A stretch of DNA of 64,000 nt from Owenia fusiformis (taxonomy: Eukaryota), in assembly GCA_903813345.2 (NCBI GenBank), contig CAIIXF020000001.1:10292001-10356000 (forward strand), in the 5' to 3' direction. Below are positions 5,201-64,000 of the stretch, one piece after another; the stretch's first letter is position 1; the number at the start of each line of letters is the position of its first letter. A program made the position numbers and the translations under genes. The notes under the pieces were generated by a model that had not been told where the DNA came from, ran no database searches, and was given only the letters and a program-made list of their open reading frames with translations.

Positions 5201-8200
5201 AGATTTTAGGCAATTTAAGTTACCAGTCCTCAGATTTTAGGCTGCTTTGAAACACCTATAGACATTTAATGAGTACCCGGAGTAACTGTTTTCTAGTTTC
5301 AGCATATTAAACAGAAAACAGTGGTTTAATCTTGTGCTTGTCTCTTTATGTTTGATTCAGACTGGTTAAAATAAGGTTCACATATTGTATCAAGCTCATA
5401 TAAGAATCCATATTTGTTCATCATCTCACTGCCTTGAATCTGTTGAAGTGGGTATGCATTTGCAGAAACTGTTTTTTTTAATATCTTTTCCATATTTCCT
5501 GGTGATTTTCAGTATGCTTTTTATATTATTCACTTTTATTCAGTCATTTTTTTGCTCTTTCCACGTGCTTTGCAATGTAACATCTTATCCCCTCCGTATT
5601 TTCAACTGTATTTAGCTATTCCTAGACTCCATTGTGAGTGATATTTAAGTTGATTGTTTCTCAAAATATCTCATAATGATATAATTATCTTTTATTTACA
5701 TCTGCTATATAAATGTCTTTGTAAAGTACACATTCTATACATAAATGTGTGCTTTAAGTTATTTCTCTGCCTTGGTTTTGATTCTTTACCTTACATTCAC
5801 TTTTTTCAATTTTTTCTTTCTCTTTATTTAATGATTCTTTTCTTATTATTAACTTATGGTTTCAATGCCTGCATGCCAAGGTTTTTGCATATTTTTTTTG
5901 CATGAATCTCAAGCTACTTCATTATATATTTGTCACTCAGAGTATCCATCCTTTGTACTCCTCAAAATAAGGGCTTTTGGAGGATTTTCTACTCACCTAT
6001 CATCACTTATATATTACATAAAATCTTGGGCATTTTTGATTATGAAAAGATGAGGTACCGTGCGTCAGGTGCTTGTTAGATGTTCATCAAGGGAAATTTG
6101 TGAATGTTTTTCAATTTGCTTCCCATCCCTCCCCCCATCCCCATCTGGCTCTGTCCTGGAGATAACATGCATGGACTTGTTAGAAAAAGCCTTCTAATAA
6201 ACTTCAGGTTTCAGACAAACACCTTGACCCAAGTTTCTTCAATATAAGTGATATCTCTAGTATTAAATCAAGCGTGTGCAGCACTTATTTGAGATTTTGA
6301 AAATAGGCTTGTTTCACTTGAAAACCTATTGAAACCACTGAAAAATGACTAAGACTGGTATTTCTGGCATTGTGTCACTTGCATCAGTTAGAGGAAATAT
6401 AATACTAGAGAAGAGGAAATAATACTAGAGAAGAACACTGGTGAAGGAACATGGGGATGAGTTCTGGAATGATGTATCGGAGGATTATTTGGAAAAAGAA
6501 GTTGCATGACATGATAGGCTTGCCATGTTGTGTAGCTTTTGCTGTAAAAATGTCTGTATGTGCTGGCAAAATGCCTGTATACAGTGTGCATACAGAAACG
6601 CAAAAAAAAAAAAAAAATCGTAAAACCACAAAATCAATGATGACTGCATCGATTTGAATGTACCATGAAGCCATGTTTCTCTTCTTTTTAAAGATATGTC
6701 ATTCAGTCACATAAGGTCATGGTTGGCTGAATAATCATACATTTCGTTCAATGGGCCAAAGTTGGTGAATGTACCAAGTTTTAGACATTGCAAAGGTCAC
6801 GGGGCCAGTGCTATTGGAAGAAGGTGTGGCATCAACAGTTAAGTGTTCATAATCATACTCTTGCATTACATTTCATATCCCTCCATATGGCCACCATTTT
6901 TTGCACACATAGATGGACTCATCTCTCCATGTCATGCATGGCTCTTTGAGTCTTCTATGGGAACAGCAATCCATTGGTGATTTCTTTTCGAAGTGTTGCA
7001 ATATCTGGTAGAGGAGTGATGATTATTTTGCTCTTGAGATAGCTCCAAAGGAAAAAGTTAGAACAATTCAGGCCAGGAGATCTTCCAATAGCACCAGGCA
7101 GAAGCACTGACTTTTGCGATGTCTAAAACTTAGCTGACTTAGGCCCACTGTGCAAAAGGAATGATTATTCATCCAACCATTACCACAGGTACATGAATGA
7201 AATATCATCGAAAATAGGAAAAACTTGGCTTAACGGTACATTGAATGAAATGCAGTCATTTCTGGTTTCTTGGTTTTACGATTTATTTTGCTATTTTTTA
7301 TGAGCACTGTATATGTGCGTTTTCCTGCTCCATGCTTGAGTATACAGTATTATATAGCTACATGTATGAGTATACAGTACTGTACTGCTGCATGTTTGAG
7401 TATATAATAATATATAATATATAGCTACATGTTAAAGTATACAGTGCTATACTGCTACTACTAATAAATTGTTGATTATTTATGTTAACTGCTCTTCTTT
7501 TTCTTTTTCAATAATAAGCATGTTTACATTTTGATAAAGATTAAAACTTAAATATTTAATTTATTATTATTGGCTAAAATCATTTTAGAAATATATGATC
7601 ATTATATAATACAAAAGTCTTGGAATTAAAATTTTTAGATGATGATCGAGTTTGATTAAAATGATTATTTTTATTCAGAAATAACTTAAAAACTTTATTA
7701 AACATGTATAGCTTACCCTTGAATAAGATGATATAAGATGATCATGATCATCGTTGTATTACTCTTTTTAAAGATTAACTTCAACTAACCTTGGATCAAA
7801 CATACCTCCCCCATTTCTTGACTTACAGGGAAGCAGATTGTGAGTGGAAAGTTGAGACAATGATTCAGGCCCGTAACCAGCTTTTGCCAAGGGCAAAAAA
7901 ATTCCAGGGGGTTCAGATTTGAGCATTTTGGCCCAAAATCACTTGAAAGTGAAAGAATTTTTGACCAGGGGTCAAGGGGTGTGACCTGGTGATTTGATGA
8001 AAACTAATTCGATGAATGCCATCGATAACGTTGAAATAACTGAAAATGGTTTCAAGAATTAAATACAAGTAAGCGCAATAGTAAAAAGAAAATGAAAAAA
8101 TGATTTGAATCGCTATAATACAAATAAAAAATAAAGCCTTCTTTTCCTTGCCGAAACCCGAGATTGAACCAGGGACCTTTAGATTCCTGGCATATCAAGG

Positions 8201-13662: not shown

Positions 13663-14796
13663 CTATTCTTGCAGTGCTTGAAGCAATAGACTGATCATAG
13701 ATTCATAGTATTCCATATTAAAGTGAATTCCATCCTGGTTCCAACCAGGTACCCTTTCACTGATTTTCATCACACCATAAAAAGGCCAAAATCTTGGATA
13801 TTGTTCTGAGAAGTATGGTATCAACTGTTTTTTAGCCTCGTTATACAACTCAACATTTTTAAACTGTCGATTTTTTACATCAGGATTGCTTTGCTTGGAT
13901 TCTTCCACAAATGTCGGTTCAAGCCATATAACTCGAGTCTCAGGATGATTTTTTATGCTGTTATTAACAACATCCAAAAACCAGGTAAATGTACGTTTAA
14001 AATTTGCAGCATCCCTCATACGTGTTTCGTGATGATTTGCGATTAGTAATATCAACTGAGGGTAAGCCTCATGCGACTTAAGTTGGAGATATTCATTAAA
14101 GATGAACTCTTGTGATGTTGGGGATTGTTCGCATGGCGCATATTGATTTGTTTTTCGGCACTTGTTTTTTGTTTTGCCATGTGGAAATCGCAATGTTGTT
14201 ATCTCAGTATCCATGAAGTATTCCATACTTACATACTCTATTGTTACATGCGAGCCACTATGACGGACATTGGATTTGCCAATCGAATCATTACTGCAAT
14301 TGTAAAGAAATGAGTCACAGCCATAGCACTCACGTGTATGAAAATACATATCTTCCTGAGGAATATTAGAAAAATATCTCATATCTGGTTCTTTATATCC
14401 TGCATTTTCCTTTTTCTCTAAACGGCATTTATATGTTGTTTTAAATGCATTAACAAATGCACGTGCATACCTTGTTGCAGTTGAATCTCCAACGAGAAGT
14501 ATGTTGCTAAGATTGTTGTTGAACAACATGTTGGGCATATCCACAAGTGTTGCAACGCAATCCTTCGCAATCCAGGACTGTTTGCTCCATACCCCTCTGG
14601 CATAGAATTCTCCATTCTCCAAAAAATAATTTTTCAAAAATTCAAGACTGCATTTTGGCTTCTTTCCTGTATGTTTTATCTTCGGCTGCTGAATAGTGTG
14701 GGGAGAGTCTGATTTTATCCAACTTACTCCAAGAATACCAATCCAAATACATATTCCTAGAGAAATCGTCAATACAAACTTGAATGGAGAATTCAT
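13663..14796 (-). CDS. SGNH-hydrolase/PC-esterase family type II membrane protein (putative glycan O-acetyltransferase/esterase), 377 aa, single coding exon
   Basis: Long intact ORF with an N-terminal TM (FVLTISLGICIWIGILGVSWI), G.W...W...C preceding LLVGDS (catalytic Ser block) and C-terminal DGIH (DxxH). This is the GDS/DxxH signature of the PC-esterase/NXPE/CAS1/TBL group. Confidence 0.85.
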   Translation of the reverse strand: MNSPFKFVLTISLGICIWIGILGVSWIKSDSPHTIQQPKIKHTGKKPKCSLEFLKNYFLENGEFYARGVWSKQSWIAKDCVATLVDMPNMLFNNNLSNILLVGDSTATRYARAFVNAFKTTYKCRLEKKENAGYKEPDMRYFSNIPQEDMYFHTRECYGCDSFLYNCSNDSIGKSNVRHSGSHVTIEYVSMEYFMDTEITTLRFPHGKTKNKCRKTNQYAPCEQSPTSQEFIFNEYLQLKSHEAYPQLILLIANHHETRMRDAANFKRTFTWFLDVVNNSIKNHPETRVIWLEPTFVEESKQSNPDVKNRQFKNVELYNEAKKQLIPYFSEQYPRFWPFYGVMKISERVPGWNQDGIHFNMEYYESMISLLLQALQE

Positions 14797-16794
14797 ATTT
14801 AGACGAAGGGAATATAGATAAAAATCTCACTGAGTTGATGGTATCACCCTCTATAATATTATCTCATCCAGACAGAGTATTGCAGAATCAATTAAAAAAG
14901 ATGAGCTTTCCAGGATATTTAGTTCCAATATTTTAGATTGATGTTTTATTGCCACAGAAACTTGTATCAGCACTCGGCAGGTATCTTCCTAGCAAGTCTA
15001 AACCAAGGCTTAAGATGTCACTAACATGTGCTATAGTTTTAGGGAAAGTCATACTACTTTATCGGCAACATACAGTATGGCATTTAATTGATCCATTCAA
15101 TTTCATAAGTAATTTATTAGATGGTCTATGAAATATTAAACTGACTTTGGAATGCAGGACAATGGGAATAGGAACTCATCAATTCATTATTCCGTGTCTC
15201 CAATAATTGAACTATGGTATACAACTCAACATTTAACTCCAGGGTTGGAATATAACATTTGAGGTGGGTGCCCTTGCTAACACCTTCAAATAAATTATTT
15301 TTCCAGTTAAAGACATTCAATGCAAGAACAAGTGTTACTTTGGAATGGCTCATCGATAAGATATTTCCCTGAGGATGAGTCATTCCGTGGTAACATATGG
15401 TTTGTCTTCAATTGAGAAATAGTTTTTTTAAGATAATACCAATGACACTGATCTGCTCAGTTCATGTACAACAACAATACTATAACAATATGTCACAACT
15501 TGTGGATATGTCACCACTTGTGGTAGTGATATAATAATGAAAAATTATGTTGTAAGACACCACTCCTAATGACCAGACTAAATTGTAATTTAACAGAACG
15601 TCTCCAAGATTCAGTTTCAAATATTTCTGAAAGTTTATTAACTTATACATGATATTTCTTTGATATTCATAGCTTTCCATCACACAATGATAACTGCCAT
15701 GGTTTATAACATCTTACAGTTCAACAGATGATGAGCACAATACTTTAGGTGTTTTGTCCAAAATATAGTTCAGTACACCAATCAAATATTTTTTTGTGAC
15801 AGTCAAAGCAATACTGTGCTATATAAAGGGATTTAACCATAAGAGACTTTCCTTTCAAAGTGAAATAATGCATCATCAATGGTAACATTTATTTTGTAAA
15901 GGCTTTATTCCTACTAACACTCAATTCATTGAATATACATGTATAAATAAAATCCACTGTGTGACAAAAAATGTTACCAGAGTCTCTATAAATCATTTTC
16001 ACTCTTGGCTTAACATAGTGAATTATAATTCAACAATAATAGCAAACATTTTATGAGGGTAAATTGAAAGTATATAGAATACCTGGATACATCCACTGCA
16101 TACATCCACTGCATACGCCTAATGCATATAAATTCCCAATTTTATTTAAAATACAATTATATCCATGATAACATGTTCAGGGAGAGAACCCCCAGTGTTT
16201 TCATATATTAAGATAATATGAAATTAACTTTTGCCTTTGTATAATTTTTTCAAGATGATATTTGGAGCTAAAGAAAGAATTTGGCTAAAGATATGAATTG
16301 GTGGAAATTGAATTGTAAAATATGATACAACTAGATCCAAGTTTAGAAAACAATCTCAGAAGCAAAATTGTAAAGCGAAACATTGAATCAGTACCATTTC
16401 GATAATTTGATTACTGCAATTTTTTTGCTTTTCTGATTTTAAATCATCTCAATTAAAATAACTTAATACATCTTTACATGAGGATATATTACAGTATATA
16501 TTTTGTACATTTTTTACAAGCCTACATTTATATTCAATATAAAAATACACTACCCACATATAATATTTACAAATACATAGTAGTGTTATAAAAAAGATAA
16601 TGTGATGTCTTACATTCATTTCTGTACATGTAAGTACAATAAACACATGTCATAGAAATTCTAATATTAACGAATTCACATATACAACAATCTTTAGTGA
16701 TATTTAATCATATACTGTACATGTATTTACAAAATACAATGTGTACCAAAATTATTACATGATTCAATGTGTGGATTTCATTGCACAAAACACA

Positions 16795-17680: not shown

Positions 17681-20600
17681 TCAGACAACAGTAGCAGGAT
17701 GGGGAACACCACCCCCTACTGTGGGTCCTGGCTCCATTCGTCGCACAACACTTCCTGCCATTGGACGCCTGGTCACACCCTCAATCCTGCGTACTCGATG
17801 ACGGTCTTTCTCCATGACACGACTGACATTCTGAAAATTCAACACACTTAACTGTATATCTTCTTTCATAGCTAATTATGTGCCACAAATATTTTAATCA
17901 GGTGATTTTTCAGTACCAGACTTGTGACAAATTGTCACCACTTCAAATCATTGGATCAAATCAAAAAGATAAATTTGTGAAGGAATCCTGCACAATTATT
18001 AATCTGTTCAAATAAAACAGCAAACAGAAAAAATAGAAAAAAGAAAATGTCAACACTTGACATTTGTTACAGATGCCAAACACCAACCACCGAAAGTCAA
18101 ACACCAAGCACCAAACTGGATATTACTGGATAAACCAGTAATACCTCTTTGGTACACGCTATATTCTTTATGGATCAACATTTAGAGGAAGGGGAATAGA
18201 AGGGGGCCCATATTCATAATAGTTTTTTATAATAGTTTTACATTAATATTACAAACCTCAGCACTCATCCAGCCAACTACATCTTTCTCTTCCCTTAGTC
18301 GTTTCTTGTCAATGTAACTGACGATACAACTGGCTGGCACCCATAGGATAATAGAGAACACGAGGATTGTACCCACAATGTTAGCACGCATAAATTGGAC
18401 TGAAAAATAAGAAAAATTATTGTACCACTACCTTTACGTCATTTTATGATTGGTCGAACATGTTGTGTATTGTAGCATGACTAACCTACATTACTCTTGT
18501 TCTGACATCAATGTGTATGACTTACATATTGTGTTGAGTTCAATTTGCATGGTTAACCAACTGTAGTGACATTAATGTGCATTGTATTGTAATCAATGTG
18601 CATAATGTACATAATTGTACTGACATCAATGACACTTGCTTAGTCATTGTAATAAACCCAATGTGCATCATAAACCTACTGCATTGACATCAATGTGTTT
18701 AGCTTACCTATTGTATTGACATCAATGTGCTTGATTTCCTATTGTATTGACATCAATGTACTTGACTTTCATATTGTATTGACATCAATGTGCTTAGCTT
18801 ACCTATTGTATTGACACCAATGTGCTTAGCTTACCTATTGTATTGACATCAATGTGCTTGGCTTACCTATTGTATTGACATCAATGTACTAGGCTTACAT
18901 ATTGTATTGACATCAATGTGCTTAGCATACCTATTGTATTGACACCAATGTGCTAAGCTTACCTATTGTATTGACATCAATGTGCTTGGCTTACCTATTG
19001 TATTGACATCAATGTACTTGGCATACATATTGTATTGACATCAATGTACTTGGGTCACATATTGTATTGACATCAATGTGATTGACTTACCTATTGTATT
19101 GACATCAATGTGCTCTATAATACTCCAGAACCTGGTGACCAGATCTTGAACTTGTTCTTTACAAATACCCTATAAAAGGAACAAAAAAATAATTGTGAAA
19201 AATGTATTATGGATTAAAAATGAGGTTTTAAACTTGAATTATTTGAAATACGAGAGCATTGATGATGTACACCATACAGTTTACATATACTGTAGGTATT
19301 TCTAACTGAGTAGCAAATTCCAATGAGCAAATTATTAGTGAAATGTGTGACAATGTAATAATCATTTTGGAAATTCTTCAGCAGATTCCAGTCTCTAAGG
19401 CATCAGTATATACAATTTGAACAAATCTGTCAACTGGTGTATTAATTATCAAAGATTGCAATTTTATGAAAAAATGGTCATTCTAAAATGAGCTGCCATA
19501 CTGAAAATTTCTTCTCAGAGATACAGACGAACAGAGGAATGGACAAGTGGATGAATGGATGGCTTCTCTATATCTCAATGAAAATTAAATGTTAATGTAT
19601 TCATAATGCTAAAACATACCGCTTCACAGTAGCCACGGACACATGGTTTTCCATCAGATAGTAAAATAGCCTTTCCATCTAGTTTGGTGTAAGGCGTACA
19701 TGTTGAGCCTACTTCTTTTTCTTTACAACACCAAAGACAAGCTTCCTCCACTGAAACACATATTATTGTAGTGTAGATGGATAATTGATGAAATGAGAAT
19801 GCTTCAAAGTATTCATATTCATAGTACACTATTTATATTATAAGTCAGTGTTATGATTGTTCAGGACCTCTGGAACAACCCTCATAGAAGTATAGTAGTT
19901 TTTCATATTTTAATAGAAGTTATTCTATGGTAAGAAATATGTGTATTGATTATGATTTAAGTCTGAAAATATACAGAGGAGAGGGTTGAAATTAATTTTT
20001 AATAGATTTTACATTATTCAAAGCCTCAGGGACATTATTGCAATTGTACATTGAAATCAATAAGTCATGGCTAAACAATGTAAATGTATATAAAATGTAT
20101 ATGTTTAATAATGTAGGAGATATATTAGCTACTAGTTGATGCCTTGAGGCATTGCTCCAAGCAATATCAAAAATCAATATCAACAACACGTAAGTAAATA
20201 AATATAGTATTTAGCTCTGCTTTTTGTTATCAATTGTTAACATTTTCAGAATGTATTGTTACTCAACAGATAAAATTGTACTAAGTGTGATGTTTGACTA
20301 TGCTTTATCAAGAACCATGAGAGCAGCATTGGGGATACTCCTCATTTACAATGCCTGCATCACAGAAATTCATGCTCAGACTGTATCTACTGAGAACACT
20401 GCTCAAACTGGACAAGAGGCTCAATCAGTTATTGTAGAACCCAAATCAAAGTGTGATACATCTGCATTCAAACACATTGAAGGTCAGAGCGGGTGTCAGA
20501 GTGAACACAATCAGTTGCAGGACTCTAAAGGGATGAGAAAAGATACACATTTAACCATAAAGGATGCTCAAATGCCACAGAAATCTCAAACTAAAGAACA

Positions 20601-23600
20601 GAATCAGTCCATGAAGAACAATGAATTAAAAACAAGTGTGACTGAGAATTGTGACACTACGGAATATTGTAGAAAGGAAGCTGATACCAAGAAAGCTAAC
20701 ACTAAAACATTTAACACAAATAGTAAAGGAGAATCAGATAAAGCTATTACTCAACAACCTGAGAAAAATACTGAACAGAAATCTGAAAGCGTAACATCAG
20801 TCAATCAAGAAGACAATGACACAGGGGTGATGCCCAAGAAAGAACGATTTGTTGTATACCAATGTCATGGCCATTGTGCAGGGTGGGGAGACAGAACACG
20901 TTCTATCATCATAGCCTACCTCATTGCTCTACTGATGAAACGCTCCTTTATACTGGACATAACTGATCCATGTAGTCTAGATGGTGTACTTGTACCAAAT
21001 AAAGTTAACTGGGCAAGGAGACTACCAAATGGGCTTTCCATTGTTGATGTAGAACACTATGTTAATACATTGCCTTCAAAACCTTTCGCTGACTTAATAA
21101 GCCAAGATAAAGACTTGAATGACATTTTCCCAGAAGATGTTGTTACCATAAAAAGCCCAATAGCAATAGTTGAACAGTTTGCACGAAATCCAAGACATCA
21201 CAAAGTGCTTGCATCATTGGGGTATGATATGTCAAGGTTTACTCAATGTAGAATGTATGCTATATTTTATGATGAAATTTTCAAGTTGAGTCCAAAACTC
21301 CAACATGAGCTTGATATATTTATATCAAAATCCAAAATACAGGAAGGTGGTCAGCTAATATGTGCACAGTTGAGAATGGGAGGCCCATATATAAAAGGAG
21401 ACATGAAATTTAACGACATGGAAGACCTTACAGTTGTGTGGGATTACATTAAACAATGTATAACTCCTGATACAACTGTGTTCATCACATCTGATGCTAA
21501 TGAAGTCAGGCAACAGGCAAAGAAAATATTTTCTAAAAGATGGATTGATCATGAGGGGTTTTCATCTCACATAGGATCTGGGGAAAGGGAGTTAAGATGT
21601 AAAGGACAGAGGAAAACTATTTTAGATTTCCATTCGTTGGCCCTTTGCGATTCGTTGATTGTAAGCACTGGGACTTATGGCCAGTTGGCAGCTTATAGAA
21701 GACAGCAAGGATTCAATGACTTTCACATTTTTAGCAAGAAGAAGATACACTAAACGTCATTTCTGGAACACCAGGCCAGGAAGGTGTTATTCCTAGCACC
21801 TGATTAAATAGCACTACCTCTGCTTTTGCGTTTATTTCAGACAACAGTTCCAGTTGTTACATTGCTTAAAACTTCTTGAAGACAATAAAATTTGGTTTCA
21901 TATTCAAATAAATCTTTTTTCAAAAGTGCAAAAATGTGTATATATGACAAGGATTGATATCACAGGGTGGGAATGTCTAGTTTTGGTAAAGCCTAAATCA
22001 CTTCAAAATCTTGAAAAAGTGCAAGTTAATTTTGCACATTTATTTCAGAATGTGGTCTATATCTAAAAAAGGGTCTTGGCCATATTTACAGTAATTTGGC
22101 ACTATTCATCCACCATATTTAGTATTTCCAACATGCTTGTATGTTTTTCACTCTATTTTGGGGAATATAAACAAGTTTTGTTTCACTATACATTAAAAAG
22201 TATAATTGATATAAATGACTTCAAATTAAAAATTTGGTTTCTGAACTCAAAGATGTCAATTTGGAATTGAACTTAGTGCTAGTTTGAGATTATTTCATGA
22301 TATAAATGCAAAATGAAAATAAAGTACTTACATTTATCACATATACAAGGCACCAATCCTTTGCTCTCACAGAAATTCACGCAAGCCCCATTTATACAAG
22401 TACCATTCTCTACGCACTCTGTACCATTATCTTTGCTTATGGGTGGTGGACAGACAGTGGTTCTCCCATCACAGTAAGCTTTACCCTCACACGTGGCATC
22501 AATTTCTGCCTCTTCTTGACACACCTCAGTAGTTGGGGCAATCTGACAGCCAATGCAGCATACCGTATTGTAAGAACTGTAATAAGAATTCAGACATCAT
22601 TTTATACAAATCTATACATGCATAACGTGCAAATACATCAGGACATCAATGGTTCTCTGCAAACTTCTAGCATCATTTTAATACACATCTTTCCATTTGA
22701 ATTCTGAAAATTAATCATCGGATATTTGGGGAAAAACTTGACATTGCTATAAAAATGCCCAAGAACAAGTGTACTAACCTGCACTTTGCATTTGGTCTGA
22801 GATAACAGTTAGGAGTACAACAAGGGTCCATATCCTTCTTTCCATTAACGCCAGCATCACATTCCTCTCCCTCCTCCACCTTAGAGTTACCACAGAACTT
22901 AGCAGCTTTCTCTGAAACAAGAGGATTTGACTTTTCAATATACTTCCTCATGCTTTTAAATTCATAGTTTTATTTATATTATAGATTCATTGCTAACTGT
23001 AAAAGGATCTGAAAAGAGACTATGTTTAAATTCCTCTCATTGAAATTACGATGACAGCAATAAATAGTGTAACATTTTGGCAGTAAAAAGCATATATGAT
23101 AATGTCCACCTTACAATTCTAATTTTATTTTCTAAAAATACTTTGAAATATCTGAGTTACCGATAATCAAGCTACAATTCATTAAAACAAAAAAAATTAC
23201 GCAGGAAATTCTATAGTTCTATATGTAAAAAGAAGTAATAAGCTTGAACTTCTAAAACTTCCGAAAAAACAAAGCCTAATGTTGACAGAGGGAACACTTT
23301 TCTTATCACAATTATATATACACCTTTCCATTAGCAGTCCAACATAATGGCCAGGTTATAGAACGTCTACTTACGTGTGAAACAGAAATCTGATTTTGCC
23401 TCCAATACACTGGAAACAAACCTCTTACTGCATGGAGAGAAATACTGAAAGAAACAAGACATGATGACACTCAGATAACAGTTTTTACCATGAACAAACT
23501 AATGAGTAAAATGTCATTTGTTTAAAAAATATGGATTTCAATTCACAAGATGTATTGGAGTTTTTATAATCTGTGCATGTTCCAGCAAATTCAAAACTTG

Positions 23601-26600
23601 TGTCTGACAAATATTCATATACGCCAACTCAATATATTCATATTCATACATATGGGTGGTAAAAAATTAAGGAGTGAGTTATCAAATTAAAAGAATGGTT
23701 AATTAAATCATCTTAAATTCAAACTATCTCCCGAAGAGATGGAGTGATTAAATATGTGCCCCTACTACATGATTTGTCAATATTTTGGATTATTATTTAA
23801 AATAAATATATTATTTAAAATAGATATATCATTTAAACGTAGGCAATCATTAACTGAATGATACAGACATATTTGCAATGTTTCCCTACCTTATTATTTG
23901 TGTCATATCCAGAGACTGAGTAGGCATACATGATGTACTTGCCATTATCAAAAGAGCCGGGTGAACAGGCCGCAGTATCAGGGTCATGCTCCGAGCCCCA
24001 GTTATGACCAAACTCTAGAATAGACGTCATCTGGATTAATACTTATATATTGAATGATGCAAATTGTCATGATCAGATTCTATAACAGTCTATTGTAACA
24101 GTCAAGATTGCAGAGTTAAAATATGATTGAAATATATTCTATGTGTACTCTATTGCAAACCCTTCTGTGCTGTTTATAAGCAATGTTCCAAAGGGAATAA
24201 TACAGAAAGTATGGTTAACAAACAGGTTATATATTTTTAATTGAAAGTATTGTTCTCCACAATTGGATTGATGACACAAAAACCAATTTCAATGCTATTG
24301 TCTGCTTAGTAGATACAGTTTAGTATTACAAACCATGAGCTGTAACAAGGTCAGCCTCTTGTGTCAGAATGCGATTGCCATAGCGATTAAGAGCACTACT
24401 CCATCCTGTGTTCAGGTACAGTGTGTACCCACCCTTGAAATATGCTGGAATAGTACATATTTAAGATATAGAAATCCTTCCTCAATGCAAAAATTTGCAA
24501 TGTTACAAAGTACTAATTTGCATGTGCAAATGTACTAAAATTACCAGGGAATTTGGCAGTGACTTAATTTGGCAGACTTAAACAATTTCCAAATTGAAAC
24601 ACCTGCCAAGCACAGTATTTGTCATCTCCTTTTATTTAACTATTTAGTATTTACCCTCTCAACAATTTTATGATATAACCAGCTGATGAGCAAATAAGAG
24701 ATTGACAATTCAATCAATGGCTATATAGAAACATTATTATCATAATAAATATAGTAATATATGATTTATTTAACAATAATTAAAATGTTTAAAGAAATAA
24801 TGAACATAATAAAACATGTTTTATCAAGATAAATATGTATTATTTTTATTAATATTGTTAATGTTATAGTTAGGGTAGAAAGATCGTGGGAAGAGGGGTT
24901 AACTGATGAAAGCGAAGAGGAAAGAGCAAATAACTATTTTTCTAAATAAATCTAAAAATCTAGAAAAATGAATGTAATCACAAAATCACAATTACAATAA
25001 CAAATGTATATAAAGAAATCACAAGTGGTGAATAATTGAACAAATGACTATTTCCTACTATGATTAGAAAGATAAGCTTCTATGAATAAAGCTAAAACAT
25101 ATAAGCTCAATTTTTGACACAGACAACTCGCAATGTGCCTAAATAGCTCACTGGAACTTGCTGGACATCTTTTATTGGAGGCAATGCAGAGTCAGTGTGT
25201 TCTGTTTTACTATTAAAATCTCAAAAATAAAAGATTCACATGTATAACTTCATTAATCTGAATTCTGGGCAAAGTTGCAAATAGCCTCATGGAGGATTGT
25301 AACTAAGTACTCCATCCTATGATGAGATAACCCCATAAGGATGAACTTTGATACACTCATTTGCTTTCCTCGATGCTCCATGGTGCAACCCCTGTCCCTT
25401 TCTATGACTATTACTTCCTGCTGGTATTTGCTTATATAAAGTGTCCCACAATGCAAAAACAAAATTTGAATTAAGTGGCACCCACCCACCCATCAGTACA
25501 AGGTGACGACAATTAGATGAAAAATTAGAATTAGATTCTAATTTAGATAAAAAATTAAAAATCTCAGGGATGATAGATATATGTTTATTTCACCCAGACA
25601 CCCATCCACCGTTTTATGGTAGTACTATGTGCATCCGTCCATCACCATTTTATAAATCTATTGAATGGAAGTTACCAAAATGGAGGTTATAAATGTGTTT
25701 CATATCAATAATGGATGAGCTGATGAACATGGATACAACAACATATGCTGATGAACATGGACACAACAACATATGCTGATGAACATGGACACAACAACAT
25801 ATGCTGATGAACATGGACAAAACAACATATGCTGTTGAACATGGATATAACAGCATATGCTGATGAACATGGATACAACATATGCTGATGAACATGGACA
25901 CGACAATAAATGCTGATGAACATGGATACAACAACATATACTGATGAACATTAATACAACAACATATGCTGATGAACATGGATACAACAACATATGCTGA
26001 TGAACATGGATACAACAACATATGCTGGTGAACATGGATACAACAACATATGCTGATGACCATGGATACAACATTGACAACAGTGAGTTTATAACACCAA
26101 ATATTCTCCTTATCCCTAAATCCTTCATTTAAATAAAATGCTCAAACTAAATACTCGGGGTGGAAGGTGTGACAATTGTGCAAAAAATGACTTTTTGAGC
26201 TGGATGGAATTTCTGTGTATTTTTCATTCTATTAGGGTGTCCTGCATAAGGGATTTCGCCTGCGAAGCATATAACTCTTGCGAACATATCTAAATATTGG
26301 TCCGAAGAAGACATACCTTGAATTTTTTCGAAAAAATTGGCTAAAAATGGAAACTACAAAAAGTTAAAATGTTCAACTCAAACAAAACTATAGCTATTTA
26401 ATATTAACACTATGTATTATTTAATGTTTTTCAGATGTTTAAGGACCTTCATTAGTGTACTAGTGTTTAGAAATAAGATAATTAAGGACAAAATTTGGCA
26501 TTTTTGACCATTTTCGCTTTCAGCAGTAACATATAGTTCCTTATATCTTGAGTTTAATGTTGACTGGTTGTTGTAATTTTGATCAAATCTGTTCTTGTAC

Positions 26601-29600
26601 ATGTCTTCTTCCATTTAAGATACAAAAAATGTATATTGGACCACCAATGGTCATATTAGAGCTTTCAGATCTCCCCTACCCCATTTATTATGAAAAATTA
26701 CTGAAACATATGAAAATGTAAAATAACTTGAATTTATAGACTTTAACAATGTTGTAGCTATTCTATATCAATATTTTGTATTATTTAATGTTTTTCAGAT
26801 ATTTCAGAACCTTTTATTGGTATACTAGTGCCTAGAAATGAGACATTTAAGGACAAAACTTGGCATTTTTTAATCATTTTAGCTTTCAGCAGTAACATAT
26901 AGTTCCTCATATATTGAGTTTTATGCTTACTGGTTGTTGCAATTTTAATCAGATCTGTTCTCGTAGATGTCTTCTTCCATTTAAGGTATAGAAAATGTAT
27001 AGTGGACCACCAATGGTCATATTAGAGCTTTCAGATCTCCCCTACCCCATTTATAATGAAAAATTATAAGAAAAATATGAAAATATAAAATAACTTGAAA
27101 CTATAAACTTTAGTTAAGTTGTAGCTATTCTATATCAATATTATGTGTTATTTAATCTTTTTAAGATAATTTAGAACCTTTATTGGTAAACAAGTGCCTA
27201 GAAATGAGACATTTAAGGACAAAACATGGCTTTTTTACCATTTTCACTTTCAGCAATAACATATAGGTCCTTATATCTTGAGTTTAATGCTGACTGGTTG
27301 GTGCATTTTTCGTCAAATTTGTTCTTGTAGATGTCTTGTTTCATTTACGATATAAAAAAATGTATAGTGGATGACCAATGTTCATAATGAGCTTTCAGAT
27401 CTCCCCTACCCCATTCATTAGGAAAAATGACCGGAAAATATTAATAAAAAGTAAAATAACTTCAAATTATGAACTTTTACAAAGTTGTACCTATTCTATG
27501 TCAATAATATGTATTATTTAATCTTTTTCTGATGTTTCAGGACCCTCATTAGTATTCTAATGCCCAGAAATGAGATATTTAAGGACAAATCTTTTTTTTC
27601 ATTTTCGCTTTCAGCAATAACGTATAGGTCCCTTTATATTGAGTTTTATGCTAACTGGTTGGTGCATTCTTGGTCAGATCTGTTCTTGTACATGTCTTCT
27701 TCCATTTAGGATATAAAAATGTATATTGGAAAACCAATGTTGATATTAGAGCTTTCATGTCTCCCCTGCCCCATTTATAATGTAAATGAAAAAGTAATTT
27801 CAAATCATAAACTTTAACAAAATTGCAGCTATTCTCTATCAATACTATGTATTATTTAATGTAACCTTCATTTGATTACATGTATCTAAAATTTGGCGTT
27901 TTTAGCATTCTGCATTTAGCAGTAGCATATAATTTTCCACAATTATAATTCTTTGATGATAGATTCATATATGTTTTCTATTGAATCTGTCTTCTTTGAT
28001 TTAAATTTAAGAAAATGTATGTAAGACAAACAATGTTTTTATTAGAGGTCTAAGATCTGCCCTCCACCATTTAATAAGAAAACCAACACAAATGTTATTA
28101 TTGCATGTTAATATTCGTAAACTTTTCAAAAGTTTAGCACATTTATTTGCACACTAAAATCAAAAAATGGCACATAAATGGGCAAAATGACAAATTTTTC
28201 ACTTTCAGCAATAGTTGTTTATATTTTTAGTTGAATGGTGATTGTTGATATATTTTAGATCATATATATTCAATTATGTGTCTTGTTATCTTCAAAGCAT
28301 GGAAAATGTGTTTTAAACACAAATATACATATTAGGGATAAAATTACTACACTACCATGTTTTTAAAAGATTACTCAAAAATAGAATAGTGCGAAATAAT
28401 TTTGTAACTTCACAGTTTACTCTCATATGAATCAAAGGATATGTCTATATATAAACATGATTGTTCACAACTCTCGAACTTAATCTAGCAACAGCCTGAT
28501 TTTTCAAATCTCCCTGGTTCTATGTTAGAGCTGCATTTAAGTCATTTTAAAGGTCTAAGTTGCTCATGACACCACAAGCTATATATTCAGATATGTAAGA
28601 TCTCTAAATAATTTTTATAGTTCTGAGAAACTCATCCTAAAATATTGTCCAACGATGTGCACTATGTTGTTTATTGCCACATGGACAGGTAGCAATACAC
28701 CCTTGACTAGAAACTTTGTATTTGCAATTTTCTCTGCCTTTTGCCATTTTACATTTGCCAATTGCCAAGGACATATGTTTTTTGTGTTGCTACGAAGGTT
28801 TGTTTGTGAGTACTGGTACAAGACACCCATCTTTGATATATCTTCAAATAGGTATTGCACTTTGAGATTCATAGTAATTTAGAATGCTACCTAAATGGAG
28901 GACATAAGAAACTTTAAGAGCTCAACTCTCATCCTCTTTGCAAGCAACAGACTGAATACAAATTCTCTCAACATTGAATTCCTTTGTCTTGTCTGCAGCA
29001 CTGTAATAGACATGGGCCATAAGGAGAGTGTCAACTTCTTCATTTCACAATGTTTGCATTTACCAAAATATCCCCAAGCCCAATATCCATCATGAACTTC
29101 CTAATTACACCACCCTTAGGTGTAATATGGAAATCACCAAGCCTTTGACAACATTGCAATTGATATGAGGGAATCACTCAGATGCGAGTAGGTAGTTACC
29201 AGTTTTGCCACCAGGTGGCTGATTCGGGGGAAATAACATGGCAGGGTATTACAAAATTCCCTTAAACTTGAATATGCATCAGTTTTAGTGGTTCACTTTT
29301 CAAATTACCCTTATGTATGTTATAGTTATACAAATTAAAATAAGTCCAGGAAAAGAAAATATTATCTGCCCAACACAAGAAAAGATATTTCACTTTTTGT
29401 AGTTTTACAACATGGGGTTATGGGGAATCTCCACGACCTAGAAGTCACATTTTCAAAGAAAATTAAATTTTCAAAGTTGATCAACTCTTTTCAAAACCAC
29501 ACTTTTAGATGTAATTTTATATGTAGATTCCAAATATGGCACCAGTTTGATTGAATTGTTAATTTTTTTTAATGACGTAAATCAAGATTATTTCTACTCG

Positions 29601-32600
29601 CATCAAGGATATTCAACCAATATGGCTTGATCACTGGTTATGATTATCACACTACTATACCCCATTACATTTTAATATGTTCCTAGTGTTCTACTATACA
29701 TTGCATAGATTCATGAGCAGTTTGCAACGTATTATTACCAGAAAGCCCAAATAGACAAAGATAGAGAATACCCGCCCCATTTGCAACTCAACTTTAAATG
29801 TCTAATTTTTAGACTTGTATACTCATGAAGTTCCTGAAACATCTGAAAATATCAAATAATACATAGTATTGATCTAGAATAGCGACAACTTTCTTAAAGT
29901 CTATACTTTGAAATTGTTTGGTTTTTATATTTCTGGTTATTTTTTCAAAATGGGGTAGGGGAGATATGTAAGCTCTCGTGTAATGTCAGGCTGTCCTTAC
30001 ATGTTTAAATACCTTAAATCAAAGTAGGCAGGCAAAAAAACAGATTTGTTCAAGAATCCATCAACCAATCAGCATAAAACTCAAGATAAAAGGAAATACA
30101 GTAATGTTATTGCTAAACGTGGAATTTTGTTCTTAAATGTATAATTTTTAGACACTAGTATATTAATGAAGGTCCTGAAACATTAATTATTCCATTCAAT
30201 AACACATAAGGAATGGCTACATCTTTGTTAAAGTTTATACTGGTAATTTGAAGTTATTTTTTATATTTTCTGGTCATCTTCCCTAATAAATGGGGTAGGG
30301 GAGATCTGAAAGCTCTAATACGAACATTGTTTGTCCACTATACATTATCAATACCTTAAATGGAAGAAAACATGTTCAAGAACAGATTTAATCAAAAATG
30401 CATCAACCAGTCAGCATAAAACTCAAGATATAAGGATTTATATGTTATTGCTGAAAGCAGCATTGATTAAAAAATGCCAAGTTTTGTCCTTAAATGTCTC
30501 ATTTCTAGTCACTTGAATACCAATAAAGGTTTTTAAAAATCTTAAAAACGTTAAATAACACATAATATTGATATAGAACAGCTACAACTTTATTAAAGTT
30601 TATAATTTCAAGTTATTTTACATTTTCATATTTCTCGTTTATTTTCCATAATAGATGGGGTAGGGGATATCTGAAAGCTTTAATATGAACATTGTTTGTC
30701 TACTATACATTTTCTATATCTTAAACGGAAGAAGACATGCACAAGAACAGATTTAATTGAAAATGAAACAATCAGACAGCATAAAACTCAAGATATGAGG
30801 AACTATATATTACTGCTGAAAGCGAAAATGATAAAAAAAAATGCAAAGTTTTGTCCTTAAATGTCTCATTTCTAGCCACTTGTATACTGATAAAGGTTCT
30901 GAAATATCTTAAAAACATTAAATAACACATAATATTTATATAGAATAGCTACAACTTTGTTAAAGTTTATAATGTCAAGTTATTTTATTTTTCATATTTT
31001 TGGGTAATTTTGTATAATAAATGGGGTAGGGGAGATCTGAAAGCTCTAATATGAACATTGGTTGTCCACTATACATTTTCTATACCTTAAATGGAAGAAC
31101 ACATGTACAAGCACAGATTTAATCAAAAATGCAAGAACCAGTCAGCATTAAACTCAAGATATAAGGAACTATATCTTAATGCTGAAAGCGAAAATGATTA
31201 AAAAATGCCAAATTTTGTCCTTAAATGTCACATTTCTAGACACAAGTACACTAATGAAGGTCCTGAAACATCTGAGAAACCTTAAATAACACATAATATC
31301 GATATAGAATAGCTACAACTTTGTTTGAGTTGAACATTTCGACTTTTTGTAGTTTCCATTTTTAGCCATTTCTTTTCTAAAATATTCAAGGTATGTCTTC
31401 TTCGGAACAGTATTTAGATATGTTCGCAAGAGTTATATGCTTCGAGGCGAAATCCCTTATGCAGGACACCCTGATAGAATAAAAAATCAGTAGAAATTCC
31501 ATCCAGCTTAAAAAGTCATTTTTTCCTTAACGGAGCCTCTTAGAAAATTTTCCACCCCGAGTAAAAAGCTGTGCGAATCAACCAATAGCTGTGAGTGTGA
31601 TGGGAAAACTATGGGTTTACATATTATGGGTTTACATATGTGATTACTGTGAACTACATTTACTTAAGTATATTCCAGTGAAAGTATTAAATCAATCATG
31701 TACTGGATATTAAACTTGTATAATCTTGTTTTCAGACATTCAACAAGGCTAAAAGATCCAGTTACTATGTCATCATTAATTACAAGTGATGTGTTTTGAC
31801 AAATTAAAATCAGGGTTGCTATGACATTTTCAAATCAATATTTCACAACCTTCTCTGACCACATTAGACAATTGCGAGGGGATTCATTGAACCATGAAAA
31901 TAAAGATGAAAATTACTTTCTGTCTATACATGTACCATGTTATAAATTATTTTTATTTAATCAAATTAAAATTTTCATATTAATTATCACACAATGTAAA
32001 ATCAAAATCAAACACCACATCAAAATGCCAAATACCATGCAAAATGCCATGTAATACTAATCAACATATGAAACAAGCCATTTTAATTGTGATTAAAAAT
32101 GCAGCACCCATCTACATTTATATTAAGTGTGCAGAAATGACACATGTTATACACATACTGACATAATAGTAACAGTAAGACACTGCAAACCACACCCAAC
32201 TAAAGCAACTCAAACTATGACACACTAAAAATTCATAATTGAATTGAATACGTTCATTTGAGCAGCCAGCCATCCTCCTATGCAGGTGTCTAGAAACCAT
32301 AGCTTCTTCTTCCCAAAAATGAAGAAGATTCTTCTTCCCAAAAATGAAGAAGAAATTCTGGATTTTGGAGCCCTGTGCTCGGAGGATGGCAGTCAGCATA
32401 TCGCATAATATTCCTCAAACTGAAGGCTTTTGTATCAAAGCCAAAAATAAACATATCTTTACATGCCTTTTATATGTCGCAATATAAAGCCCATTGTTAT
32501 GTGTCACGTAGAATGTATTCATTCCAATTATTACTTTAGTACAATATTAATATCACTAGTTGCAAACAGGATTGTATTTATTATATAATTTTCAAAGGAA

Positions 32601-35600
32601 AACAGTGAATGACAAGACTGTACAATTAATGTGTTGCACATGTCCAAACTTGAACGATTAAAGACAATTTTAAAAATACTTTCTTAAGTTATTAAAAATG
32701 TTAACCAACACAAAACACAATGAAATCTGCAACTAGGTAACTAGGTAACTAAGGGACGCATGAAGCTGTCAATCACCTGATGAGCAGATCCCGCCCACTG
32801 AGTAAGATCGAGGTGATGCGATATACGCTAGGCCTAACACGCCCCCTTCAAAGGGCAAATATGTAAAGAGATGGGACAAACAGAACTGCTTGTAATGAGA
32901 ATCACGGCTAAACACCTGAAATTGAAAATCCCCGAATGTGTACATCCTGTTACGTTATTAAACATTACTTAAGCATTTTGGTCGTTCACTATTAGGGATG
33001 CAATGCATTAGCTCAGCTATGACTTTTGTATTTCATCTGAAATAAATAAACATTCTATGTTCAACCCTATTAAGATTTACCATGCAACTCTTAATGATTT
33101 GACAGCCAATAAAGTTCTCGAAACAAACAGTTTGCCCATTAAAAAAATTCATCTCTCAGAACATATCATTTTTGAAACATCACCTAGTAGTTTTATATTT
33201 TTTATCTTTTCCAAAAACCTGACAACCGTGAACTTTTGCAGAAGAGTCAATTTTATCATGTTAAATCAGCTTTCTATCTTCTGTTTTTCATTTGTACTTA
33301 AAGCAGCTAAATTGTCAAATGATTAAGAGTCTGTAAGGACCCATGCATCTAACATTTCCATTTCCTGAAATCTAGGAAAGCAATGTGTATTAGTAATGCT
33401 TTATGGTCATAGTTCAAAAAACAGCCATTCAAAACCTTCTAAAATGCATACAGTAAATCCAAGATGCAATCCCAAAACAATTTTCCAGCTTAATTCAAGG
33501 ATAATCAAATGAGGCACTTGGCAGAGAAGTAGGAAGTGACCTCACGAAGCTAGACATTGTAGGGAATTGTGGGATGTACAGAGGAGATACACAGAGGATT
33601 TATTGAAGCTGTTTGTTGATATGGGGTTTTGTTGAGCATTGAGAAACCCATACCCCATGCAGGAGAATGTGATACCCTATGAATATTATACACTTGGGAA
33701 AATACATACTATTTGTTAGATCCCAATAGACGAATCACTATGTTCAGAGAGGTAAGGATTTTTGATGGTATAAGACACTCACAATGAAAATATCTCATAT
33801 TAAAATATATGACAATTAAGGAGAAGGAGGTAGAACATGATGTATGAAAGACTTTATTATCATGTGACTTTATTATCATATGATTACAATTGATTATCTG
33901 AATATGACATAATAATGTGTTATTTTAATAACAATTCTCCATGTTTCTTAATTTTTCATTGATGTAAAATTAATTGTGGCAGAAATTATAAATAATTAAT
34001 TGAACTGATTAATCAAAATAATGAATGGATCGTGAATTCTAAATCTCTCCTCAAAAGCATGATAAGTGTGTCCCCCCAACCAATCACAATCATAAAAAGG
34101 AGCCAGATGGAGTCTGGGTGTGACCCCCCCCCCTTCATAATTGAAATATTGAATTATAATATCATGTGCCATTTCCTGAGCTGGAATATTCTACCCTCAA
34201 TTAAACAATGTAAGGAGATGGAGCCTCAAAGAAACAGGTCATAAATTGTAACATGTTACTCAGTAGGCCTATAGCCATAGAAAATAGTTATGGGGTTAGT
34301 GATGTTAGTTAAACATGTGCCTTTAACAGAAGACTGTACATTAAACAGTAACTCATCCAACTCTTAACATCCAAGAAACCCTGACAGATCAGATAATCCA
34401 CAACATTGTTTCAATCTCTTTCATCATATTTAAGTCTCATCTTGTACATTTTGTAATCTTTAAACTTTCCAAAACGTCAATGTACTTTATATCTCATCTT
34501 GTACATTCAGTAACCTTTAGAATTTTTCAAAACAGCCATTTTATATATTCAATAAATTCAATGTACTTTATAAGGGACACAATCATCAATATTGTACCTA
34601 AAACTAATAAAATGGACAGCGTTGGATTTACATAGCTGCAGCATGTCAAATTAATTAGTTCCAGCTTTGCATAGCAGAAAACAGCTCCGAAAATCTTATC
34701 AAGTAGTTTATATTGAAATGCACAGACAAGAAAAGTGAAACCCTTCCACCCATTCACAATAAGCAGAATGTATCAGAACTTGTCATTTTGAAGTCAATAG
34801 AGAAAAAACAACTGGTGAAGAGACATCCCCTTCAGAAATCATCATTGAAACACTTGTTGAAAATTTGAAGAACAGTGCATATAGACTTATAGGAAATGGC
34901 ATACAATTACTTCAAAAGCACGGAGATCATCTTATCTGTCAGGATTCGAAACAATTTTTAGTTTGAACTCAATTTTGAACTCAATATCACAAAGGATAGC
35001 CCAAAATGTGAAGTGGTGCATATAAAGATATAGAGTTAAGAGTTATCATGAGCAATTTTCACTTTAATCACTAAACTGTCAAAAAGCTGCCTAGAAACAA
35101 GTATCTTGGAATCAGGGTGAAGGAGGAGTGCAATGTATGAATGGGCAATCGTAATATTGTTGCTAACATTCAATTATAGTAAATCATGCCATTTAATATA
35201 TATGATGCCACTGGTACAATTTTACTGCATGTTGCTAATTTTGAAGAACTTCTTCAATTGTGTAAGCAATGCCATGTTTATAACTTGTGTCATCATAAAT
35301 CTAAACCATCTTCATTCACTCGGCTCACATCAGTGGTCTGAATGCAGAGAATACTGAGTGTGCGAAGATGGAATCTAACCATTATATGCTGGCTTCACTG
35401 ATGTAACAGAATTTATAGGATATGATTATCCAAATGAGTTTGTTCTTAAGATGAGTAGAATAGACATTCACACCCTGGTTTCAAGATAAATGTTCAGGGA
35501 ACTATATGCTTTTATTTTTTTGACAATTTCTGACATTATTTTCATTCTCAAACTCAGTACAGACATGTTTATGCATGAGACACAGAGAGGCTGTTATACC

Positions 35601-62600: not shown

Positions 62601-62998
62601 ATCATTTTTAATGAGATCTAAAGGAGATCTGCATTTTTAACATTCACTTAAAAACTAAGTTAACATTTTCTTCTAATTAACTTTTTTCAGGTGTCCCCAT
62701 ATTATAAATAGTATTCTGGCCAAACAAAAGCCTCTACTGCCATCTATTTATCCATCTATATAGCAACTTCTCTGTTTGATATATGCAAAGTGAATATCCT
62801 CTCTGACAAGCAAGAACTAACTATGAAATTGTAATTTCATTCCTGTGTTCTTACCTTTTGAGTTATATGCATTCTCACATGTTGACCATGGTAATGTAAA
62901 AGTGAAGGAATTGACCAAATAGTATATACCCCAGCCAAGCACCATATTGTAATATATCATCAGAAGGAAAGCGGCAATATACCCTGCAAATCCAATTC
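56683..62998 (-). CDS. SLC6 (NSS) Na+/Cl- dependent amino-acid transporter, 3' 11 exons (TM3 to C-terminus); 5' exons lie beyond the window
   Basis: Exons 62855-62998, 62381-62417, 61799-61940, 60872-61113, 60078-60202, 59415-59527, 58719-58847, 58116-58215, 57647-57750, 57164-57340, 56683-56856, all GT-AG and phase-consistent. Motifs: IYYNMVLGW, LPWSTC, KGIKSSGKVVYFTALFPY, WKDAASQIFFSL, SSYNKFHNN, NCLTSFFAGFVVF, GPGLIFVVYP, PDWGP. Confidence 0.95.
58956..59252. mobile_element. MITE with CAGTGGCGTAGCGT terminal inverted repeats
   Basis: cagtggcgtagcgt ... acgctacgccactg; flanks tacat/tacac form an imperfect TSD. Confidence 0.8.
61937..62037. repeat. 40-bp tandem repeat (2.5 copies) containing the SLC6 splice acceptor
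   Basis: atagctgaaat...atgaaa occurs at 61937, 61977 and 62017; minus strand ATTTCAG|CTAT. Confidence 0.85.
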
Positions 62999-63017
62999 CT
63001 AAAAGGAAATATTTAAC

Positions 63018-64000
63018 TTTTTATGTCACCACCAAAAGTGGTGACATATTGTTATGGTCTCCGTTTTTTTGCGACGGCGGTTGGTGGTTGGCGGTTGGTG
63101 GTTGGAGGTTGGCGTCCGGCGTCCAGCGTCTGTAACAATTTCTTACAACTTCCTATAACTTAACAAATACTGTTTAGACTGACTTCAATTTTTTTCTAAA
63201 TCATCTACATGTTCTCAGAAGTTCAAATCTGACTTTAGATTTGACATTTGACCTTCAATGACCTTCTCAAGGTCAAAAAGGTCTTTTTTCAACTTGCTTC
63301 ACATTGACTAAATTTTTTACAAAATCATCTACATGTTCTCAGAAATTCAAATCTGACTTTAGATTTGACTTTAGATTTGACATTTGACCTTCAAATCTGA
63401 CTTTAGATTTGACATTTGACCTTCAATGACCTTCTCAAGGTCAAAAAAGGTCAAAAAGGTCTGTTTTCAACTTGCTTCAAATTGACTAAATTTTTTTTTC
63501 AAAATCATCTACGTGTTCTCAGAAATTCAAATCTGACTTTAGATTTGACTTAAGATTTGACATTTGACCTTCAATGACCTTCTCAAAGTCAAAAAAGGTC
63601 AAAAAGGTCTTTTTTCAACTTGCTTCAAATTGACTAAATTTTTTTTTTCAAAATCATCTACATGTTCTCAGAAATTCAAATCTGACTTTAGATTTGACAT
63701 TTGACCTTCAATGACCTTCTCAAAGTCAAAAAAGGTCAAAAAGGTCTTTTTTCAACTTGCTTCAAATTGACTAAATTCTTTTTTCAAAATCATCTACATG
63801 TTCTCAGATATTCAAATCTGACTTTAGATTTGACATTTGACCTTCAATGACCTTCTCAATGTCAAAAAGGGTCAAAAAGGTATTTTTTCATCTTGCTTCA
63901 AATTGACTAAATTTTTTTTTCAGAATCATCTACATGTTCTCAGAAATTCAAATATGACTTTAGATTTGACATTTGACCTTCAATGACCTTCTCAAGGTCA
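63018..64000 (+). mobile_element. HINE-like Helentron element carrying an internal tandem satellite array (units ~125-180 bp), truncated by the window end
   Basis: Starts tttttatgtcaccaccaaaagtggtgacat, then a (GGYGGTT)n microsatellite, then at least 6 repeats of aatcatctacatgttctcagaaattcaaatctgactttagatttgacatttgaccttcaatgaccttctcaaggtcaaaaa. Confidence 0.8.

Follow-up and report, generated by a model that had tools for sequence, protein, structure and literature searches.

A minisatellite repeating an exon end and its 5′ splice site in an ADAM17-like gene of Owenia fusiformis, with pseudo-donors silent in steady-state RNA

The window analysed here is a 64,000-nt stretch of Owenia fusiformis DNA (assembly GCA_903813345.2, contig CAIIXF020000001.1, positions 10,292,001 to 10,356,000 of the forward strand; all coordinates below are positions within it). 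On its minus strand it carries an ADAM17-like gene, in which a 32-bp minisatellite starts inside a 79-nt juxtamembrane exon and continues through the following intron. The repeated unit joins the end of that exon to its 5′ splice site, and donor-like sites recur downstream of the authentic donor. In the RNA reads that cover the locus, every listed splice into the next exon leaves from the authentic donor. We put the probability at roughly 75% that this array is a neutral passenger with silent pseudo-donors, belonging to the boundary-spanning minisatellites already known as the F7-IVS7 or "mirage" type.

By sequence, the host gene is ADAM17-like, its membrane-proximal, juxtamembrane and transmembrane segments being colinear with those of ADAM17. 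The open reading frame (ORF) of the exon preceding the juxtamembrane exon matches the Pfam model ADAM17_MPD (2.3e-11), and ORFs further upstream match Reprolysin and Disintegrin models. The preliminary description of this locus, made from the letters alone, had recognised the end of an ADAM17 exon and numbered it exon 17. The identification holds, while a tblastn map puts the exon at about the 18th coding block (three blocks missing there were placed from the ORF list). The borders of the exon and its surroundings are as follows.

19091-19169, minus strand: 79-nt juxtamembrane exon of the ADAM17-like gene (26 codons plus 1 nt; phase 0 to 1), with RNA joints 19169↔19620 and 19091↔18399
18400-18425, minus strand: T-rich tract and CAG acceptor of the intron, outside the repeat
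18257-18399, minus strand: following exon, which codes for the transmembrane helix (covered by RNA at about 40-48x, with its donor marked by loose ends at 18257)

The peptide of the 79-nt exon aligns to residues 639-663 of human ADAM17 (8snl_A), and that of the transmembrane exon to residues 667-700 of the same chain (E 1.1e-5). Human ADAM17 chains are the sole PDB matches for both peptides, and in both proteins 3 residues lie between the aligned blocks. This identical spacing indicates that nothing has been inserted into the protein; the exon end is thus ancestral, and the repeat was copied from it.

Tandem Repeats Finder reports the array on the minus strand at 18674-19114 with a period of 32, 13.8 copies, 88% matches and a score of 665. 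Cutting the minus strand in a 32-nt register from 19112 resolves it into the following parts (here and below, a slash within a donor motif marks the splice position).

19112-19081, minus strand: unit 0, the last 22 exon nt (CACATTGATGTCAATACAATAG) and the first 10 intron nt (GTAAGTCAAT), containing the authentic donor TAG/GTAAGT
19080-18698, minus strand: units 1-12, well-preserved 32-bp copies (unit 11 is 31 bp)
18697 to about 18485, minus strand: about 7 decayed copies of the 32-bp unit, the old part of the array, placed by wrap-around alignment to the unit consensus

The first monomer therefore spans the exon-intron boundary, whose position is fixed by the RNA joints; an exon end fused to its 5′ splice site is what the preliminary description had read into the unit. 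That description also placed the array correctly, but the decayed copies make it longer than was stated. There are about 19 intronic copies in all, and the array accounts for about 90% of the 691-nt intron. The oldest-looking copies are those farthest from the exon; within the decayed part, Tandem Repeats Finder also detects a weak 21-bp array at 18562-18603. A search for the 22-nt exon-end motif with up to 3 mismatches returned 15 occurrences, all on the minus strand and all between 18494 and 19112, and none of 100 shuffles gave a match; within the 64-kb window the unit is thus confined to the array locus. Units 3-6 and units 7-10 are identical at 123 of 128 positions, forming a 128-bp higher-order duplication, which indicates that part of the array grew by a 128-bp block.

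The array is also present in another sample, from which it differs at three bases. Contigs of this second DNA sample (X2) cover 18150-18728, 18739-18815 and 18995-19114, that is, both array ends and inner parts, with substitutions relative to the present allele at 18637, 19054 and 19081. The X2 word depth is raised inside the array; its short-read contigs break within the array, and no single record spans it.

Each unit brings with it a potential donor. The sites found by the register cut and by a check of donor motifs, together with the stop codon met on reading past the authentic donor, are listed below.

19090 (the G of the donor), minus strand: authentic donor TAG/GTAAGT in unit 0; the intron starts at 19090
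19058 and 19026, minus strand: the two nearest copies, weakened to AT/GTGACC and AT/GTATGC, respectively
18994, 18962, 18866, 18834, 18802 and 18707, minus strand: six TAG/GTAAGC pseudo-donors within units 1-12
18930, minus strand: TAG/GTATGC pseudo-donor within units 1-12
18898, 18525 and 18485: further donor-like sites TAT/GTAAGC, TAT/GTAAGT and TAG/GTTAGT, respectively
19043-19041, minus strand: in-frame TGA, met at the 43rd codon when the exon is translated past the authentic donor

All donor coordinates given by the preliminary description, and the weakening of the nearest copies, were recovered in this way; the three sites at 18898, 18525 and 18485 are additions to its list. Position -1 is T in units 1, 2, 6 and 10, and the GT is lost in units 10 and 11. 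We gauged donor strength by a 9-position consensus count and by U1 duplex energy, both crude measures built on the U1 end and the donor consensus. On these scales the authentic site scores 8/9 and -10.5 kcal/mol, and the six GTAAGC pseudo-sites 7/9 and -9.4 kcal/mol. The translation also agrees with the earlier statement that reading on from the exon reaches a stop before the transmembrane exon: any pseudo-donor in unit 2 or beyond takes in the TGA, whereas the unit-1 donor shifts the frame instead.

Donor use was read from three raw RNA-seq runs (X21, X22 and X23) of one study carrying the same species label, over positions 18150-19900; joints were listed from 3 reads and base differences from 1% of reads. 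The joint 18399↔19091, which marks the authentic donor, is carried by 21, 29 and 46 reads in X21, X22 and X23, respectively. These 96 are all of the reads listed into 18399: no other joint into this acceptor, and no exon-skipping joint, was present at 3 or more reads in the three runs. The count of junctions from 19090 against those from the pseudo-donors, proposed earlier as a check, thus falls entirely on the authentic site in steady-state RNA. The depth profile points the same way. Mean RNA depth is 0 in all five bins of 18740-19034, in the three runs and in both orientations, and 33-56x in the exon bins. The bin at 19035-19093 has a depth of 1.5-2.5, which is the expectation from its 3 exon bases alone at 29-49x, so that no read extends past the authentic donor. 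Steady-state use of any pseudo-donor is therefore below roughly 3%. The suggestion of a switch, tunable by copy number, that would yield nonsense-mediated decay (NMD) or a secreted ectodomain finds no support in these junction counts or in the empty array bins.

Protein records are in line with the RNA. P0001, a 774-aa protein named by its source as an ADAM 17-like protease of Owenia fusiformis, is the only database protein sharing the exon, which it matches at 100% over its residues 652-677. Against a query made of the exon plus its read-through, P0001 matches the exon part only, which corresponds to the product of the authentic donor. A read-through or pseudo-donor isoform was not found in the protein database by this word-based search, a weak one with a short query that gave 1 match among 2 candidates.

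The reads over the exons also show base differences, both within and between the RNA runs, at 19128, 19140, 19158, 18329, 18359, 19686 and 19737. The G>A difference at 19128, for instance, occurs in 20 of 36, 17 of 31 and 8 of 58 reads of the three runs. These differences look allelic, and none of them falls within the 22 repeated exon bases. In X23 only, 6 reads carry a joint 19170↔19622 with one extra letter, beside the main joint 19169↔19620; this is probably due to a base that differs at the exon border, not to another splice. In the preceding intron, positions 19389-19447 stand out in DNA word depth, at 613-1090 compared with about 90 on either side, and the RNA reads there have loose ends on both sides. 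This segment is probably a fragment of a dispersed repeat expressed elsewhere.

To see how the donor motifs have fared relative to the rest of the unit, we counted the cells that differ from the consensus among units 1-12. Because some of these units come from block duplication and are not independent, fewer events lie behind the differences than the counts of cells suggest.

Columns 22-28, donor: 12 of 84 cells differ
Columns 29-32 and 1, adjacent non-donor tail: 15 of 60 cells differ
Columns 2-21, exon-derived core (the 20-mer ACATTGATGTCAATACAATA): 2 of 240 cells differ

GTAAG is not preferentially kept, and the donor columns drift like ordinary intron. That they drift like the neighbouring intron speaks against selection for a donor array. 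Preferential retention of GTAAG, which had been raised as a mark of function, is accordingly not seen within this one allele.

We propose the following course of events. Within an intron that already existed, a 32-bp segment lying across the exon/intron boundary would have undergone tandem duplication, with 128-bp blocks following later; replication slippage or unequal exchange is the probable cause. The exon end is the ancestral template, and the intronic copies would be non-coding passengers that happen to bear donor-like sites. The spliceosome would take the most upstream site alone, and this site is also the best U1 match (TAG/GTAAGT), leaving the downstream pseudo-sites silent at steady state. 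Such silence fits the 5′-to-3′ oriented selection and exon definition shown experimentally for human F7 IVS7. The loss of the -1 G in the two nearest pseudo-sites may lower mis-splicing further, since in human 6-16 and CBS it is the proximal sites that leak. The window is rich in minisatellites of about 30 bp, with 17 copies at 4707-5242 and 13 copies at 25719-26073. The array is most likely without a regulatory role, and neutral slippage, held as a fallback in the preliminary description, is the best-supported reading, given that no pseudo-donor junctions were found and that the donor columns decay like the neighbouring intron.

This architecture is already described in human F7 and other genes and in amphioxus. 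In the 37-bp variable number tandem repeat of human F7 intron 7, the first monomer spans the exon-intron boundary and the 4-8 identical pseudo-sites are functional but silent, the most upstream site being selected by an oriented 5′-to-3′ process, according to the excerpted text of Borensztajn et al. (2006, PMC1557585). The same excerpt states for F7, LMNB2 and PDGF that only the authentic, most upstream donor is used. The ADAM17 array resembles the F7 repeat in its boundary-spanning first monomer, in the row of pseudo-donors that follows the authentic donor and in using solely the most upstream site. It differs, as far as the excerpted F7 account goes, in its annelid host and in its unit, which holds 22 exon nt and has about 19 intronic copies, against 4 exon bp and 5-9 copies in F7. 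The F7 pseudo-sites are identical to a weak authentic site (UGG/gugggu), whereas the authentic ADAM17 site is near-perfect and its pseudo-sites differ at +6 or are degraded. The F7 pseudo-sites are, in that account, functional; those of ADAM17 are predicted sites.

The "mirage" minisatellites of amphioxus, in Adh3 and in the globin genes BflGb6 and BflGb9, likewise span exon-intron boundaries and leave regular splicing undisturbed (PMC3087553, in the part of that article available). Many of their units carry AG/GT signals and the repeated donors are mostly silent; the same part of the article describes concerted evolution and length instability (PMC3087553). They lie in another phylum and in other genes; on the same partial source, the globin units measure 150-160 bp, some of them copying the acceptor side, and length polymorphism has been shown in amphioxus, where such repeats are reported to be a general feature of the genome. 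The boundary minisatellites of intron 2 of human 6-16 (IFI6) and of intron 13 of CBS, in which proximal pseudo-sites are used constitutively (PMC1557585, as excerpted), share with the ADAM17 array the reiterated donors after the authentic one. The difference from what that excerpt reports is that the two most proximal ADAM17 copies have T at -1 and that no use of them is seen. A boundary-spanning monomer, a reiterated donor and, in steady-state RNA of one study, use of the authentic donor only are the defining features of the boundary-spanning class that were tested, and the array shows them all.

Other candidate explanations were tried and rejected. The literature on intron gain describes, in the sections accessible to us, the tandem duplication of AGGT segments, in which a new intron starts at one copy's GT and ends at the AG of the following copy, and its removal gives back the ancestral coding sequence (PMC3265369, PMC4974935). 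Compared with these partial accounts, the ADAM17 array does repeat an AG/GT segment in tandem, but the intron's acceptor (18400) comes after a unique T-rich tract that is not part of the array, and the protein runs colinear with human ADAM17. These two facts place the duplication inside an existing intron, and the intron-gain route to which the preliminary description had likened the array does not fit. RNA structure hiding the pseudo-sites was rejected as well, since the 801-nt exon-intron stretch folds no better than its shuffles (-180.1 kcal/mol against -175.7 ± 6.0 in 20 shuffles; z -0.73). A recursive splice site, or ratchet point, has a pyrimidine tract and AG directly before GTAAG. In the array, the sequence before each AG/GT (GTCAATACAAT) is A-rich and lacks a pyrimidine tract, and this candidate was also discarded.

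Several observations weigh against a neutral passenger array, and they concern the invariance of the exon-derived core, the reach of the RNA data and the strength of the silent sites. The core has 2 of 240 differing cells, and the remaining 12 columns have 27 of 144. Variation is found in just 1 of the 20 core columns and in 11 of the 12 others (Fisher p 1e-6), and up to 13 consecutive columns are invariant (permutation p 0.0045); a control array of 31-bp units at 4707-5242 shows no such clustering (p 0.29). The invariance includes the seven columns that would be codon third positions in the exon copy, and it holds even where a change would be synonymous there. A near-invariant 20-mer is not accounted for by purely neutral decay. 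It may be due to short-tract conversion, to mutagenic repeat junctions or to a sequence constraint that is real.

The last of these would correspond to a functional core array, in which selected copies of the 20-mer would act as predicted splicing-factor sites, as sites of a dimeric transcription factor or as a U1 platform, and would enforce the upstream donor or tune ADAM17 expression. The column statistics above speak for such selection, and selection on the protein, acting on the exon copy and then spread by conversion, does not easily account for the invariance of the third-position columns. The decayed units, too, keep the core better, matching the consensus at 116 of 139 cells in the core and at 48 of 70 in the other columns, although their alignment may be anchored on the longer core. 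The two X2 array substitutions at 19054 and 19081 are both outside the core. The core also contains a 12-nt near-palindrome, ATTGATGTCAAT. On the other side, no binding factor is known, any motif resemblance would be tentative, and the partial origin of the units by higher-order duplication means that the cell counts overstate the events. The intron RNA shows no folding beyond that of its shuffles, and a search of the array and its surroundings against Rfam gave no match at E up to 1. The same pattern could moreover arise without function, through short-tract conversion or mutagenic repeat junctions. We therefore regard a functional core as an unlikely account of the array. A search of metagenome contigs for the 20-nt core returned 3 loci with a single match each and unrelated flanks, which we take as chance, and supplied no independent alleles.

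As to the RNA, the share of each run that was read is about 6, 6 and 12%, and the data are steady-state RNA from one study only. Joints with 1-2 reads fall below listing; the zero depth of the array speaks against even single long reads. The bin at 18681-18739 has a depth of 1.0, 0.3 and 1.2 in the three runs, the next bin being at 0, and such reads reach at most 32 nt into unit 12. We read them as short overhangs of true-junction reads misplaced on unit 12, because the first 22 nt of this unit equal the exon end. The genuine donors of two neighbouring exons are weaker than the pseudo-donors (GCG/GTATGT with 6/9 and -5.5 kcal/mol; GAG/GTTTGT with 6/9 and -7.7 kcal/mol), so that, by these crude measures, the complete silence of the pseudo-donors is not trivial. 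In addition, the products of pseudo-donors from unit 2 outward would contain a premature stop, and NMD could thus hide real use.

A rival reading is that of conditional poison donors. Used at a low level, or only in a certain stage, tissue or stress, the pseudo-donors would lead to NMD or to a soluble ADAM17 ectodomain, with the length of the array setting the dose. Poison exons and NMD-coupled unproductive splicing work in this manner, alternative splice-site use bringing in a premature stop. The array shares with them the premature stop on alternative use; it differs in that no alternative junction is seen and that the sites are not conserved above background. Of the features of an NMD-coupled poison site, a premature stop upstream of later junctions is present, and alternative junctions were not detected in the three RNA runs. 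The six TAG/GTAAGC sites are close to the authentic donor in U1 pairing, the TGA lies within the product of every site from unit 2 outward, and proximal pseudo-sites are constitutively used in the human 6-16 and CBS arrays (PMC1557585, as excerpted). Against this stand the 0 of 96 listed junction reads from a pseudo-donor, the zero array depth and a steady-state share of less than about 3%, as well as the database search that returned no read-through isoform. Furthermore, it is the proximal sites, active in the human examples, that are weakened in this array, and the donor columns are not conserved above the neighbouring tail. Conditional use of this kind is, in our view, doubtful.

That the copies should be anything other than passengers appears improbable to us under both proposals, whether at least 12 invariant 20-mers form a homotypic binding array (for enforcement of the upstream donor despite seven strong competitors, or for ADAM17 output) or the pseudo-donors are conditionally activated with a copy-number-dependent dose. 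An assembly artefact, in which the array or its length would be a mis-assembly of a shorter repeat, is very improbable: the X2 short-read contigs do break inside the array and its copy number is that of the assembly, but contigs of that independent sample lie over both array ends and inner units with raised word depth, the RNA joints fix the exon borders exactly as assembled, and the many distinguishing substitutions and the decay gradient among units are rarely made by collapsed or inflated assemblies.

If the neutral passenger reading is right, the locus adds one more natural case, perhaps the first to be noticed in an annelid, of splicing that takes the first of a series of near-consensus 5′ splice sites and ignores those behind it; a literature search found no published account joining Owenia or ADAM17 with a boundary minisatellite or a pseudo-site repeat. 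The "most upstream site wins" behaviour of the F7 type would then extend beyond mammals. With its 79-nt exon and 691-nt intron, the locus would be a small natural system in which to study how a spiralian chooses its 5′ splice sites. It is also a warning for annotation, since a gene predictor could choose a pseudo-donor; the annotated protein keeps to the authentic one. The sole feature out of the ordinary is that the 20-mer derived from the exon is almost perfectly invariant beside donor and tail bases that vary freely, and it would matter if it reflected a binding-site array or strongly polar conversion.

Elsewhere in the ADAM17-like gene, two homologous metalloprotease-domain exons lie about 2.7 kb apart on the minus strand, at 35598-35744 (ending in GGVCTKG) and 32769-32954 (ending in GGICSS), and both match Reprolysin_2. 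P0001 contains all of the former exon and only the C-terminal part of the latter. The pair looks like a tandem exon duplication, possibly of mutually exclusive exons, joined by an odd gene model. The introns of the gene also house several further repeats and ORFs. Tandem arrays of 28 bp x 13 at 25719-26073, about 366 bp x 3.8 at 26391-27786 and about 365 bp x 3.1 at 30211-31325 are all inside ADAM17 introns. One ADAM17 intron harbours, on the opposite (plus) strand at 39261-40778, an intronless 505-aa ORF that contains a complete Sulfatase domain (1.6e-47) and SGSH_C. Another plus-strand intronless ORF, of 512 aa (20215-21753), lies in the intron upstream of the membrane-proximal-domain exon and has a weak match to the Pfam model XG_FTase (4.7e-4, below the cut-off).

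The window also holds an intronless 387-aa ORF on the minus strand at 13663-14826, with a weak match to Pfam Lipase_GDSL (7.4e-3, below the cut-off), and a tandem array of 136 bp x 4.4 at 63390-64000. The 31 bp x 17 minisatellite at 4707-5242 has in its unit an acceptor-like CCTCAG and a donor-like CAG/GTTACC. Upstream of the ADAM17-like gene, at about 57100-63020 on the minus strand, are exons of a sodium:neurotransmitter symporter (SNF/SLC6), of which the ORF at 60868-61113 matches PF00209 (6.8e-27).

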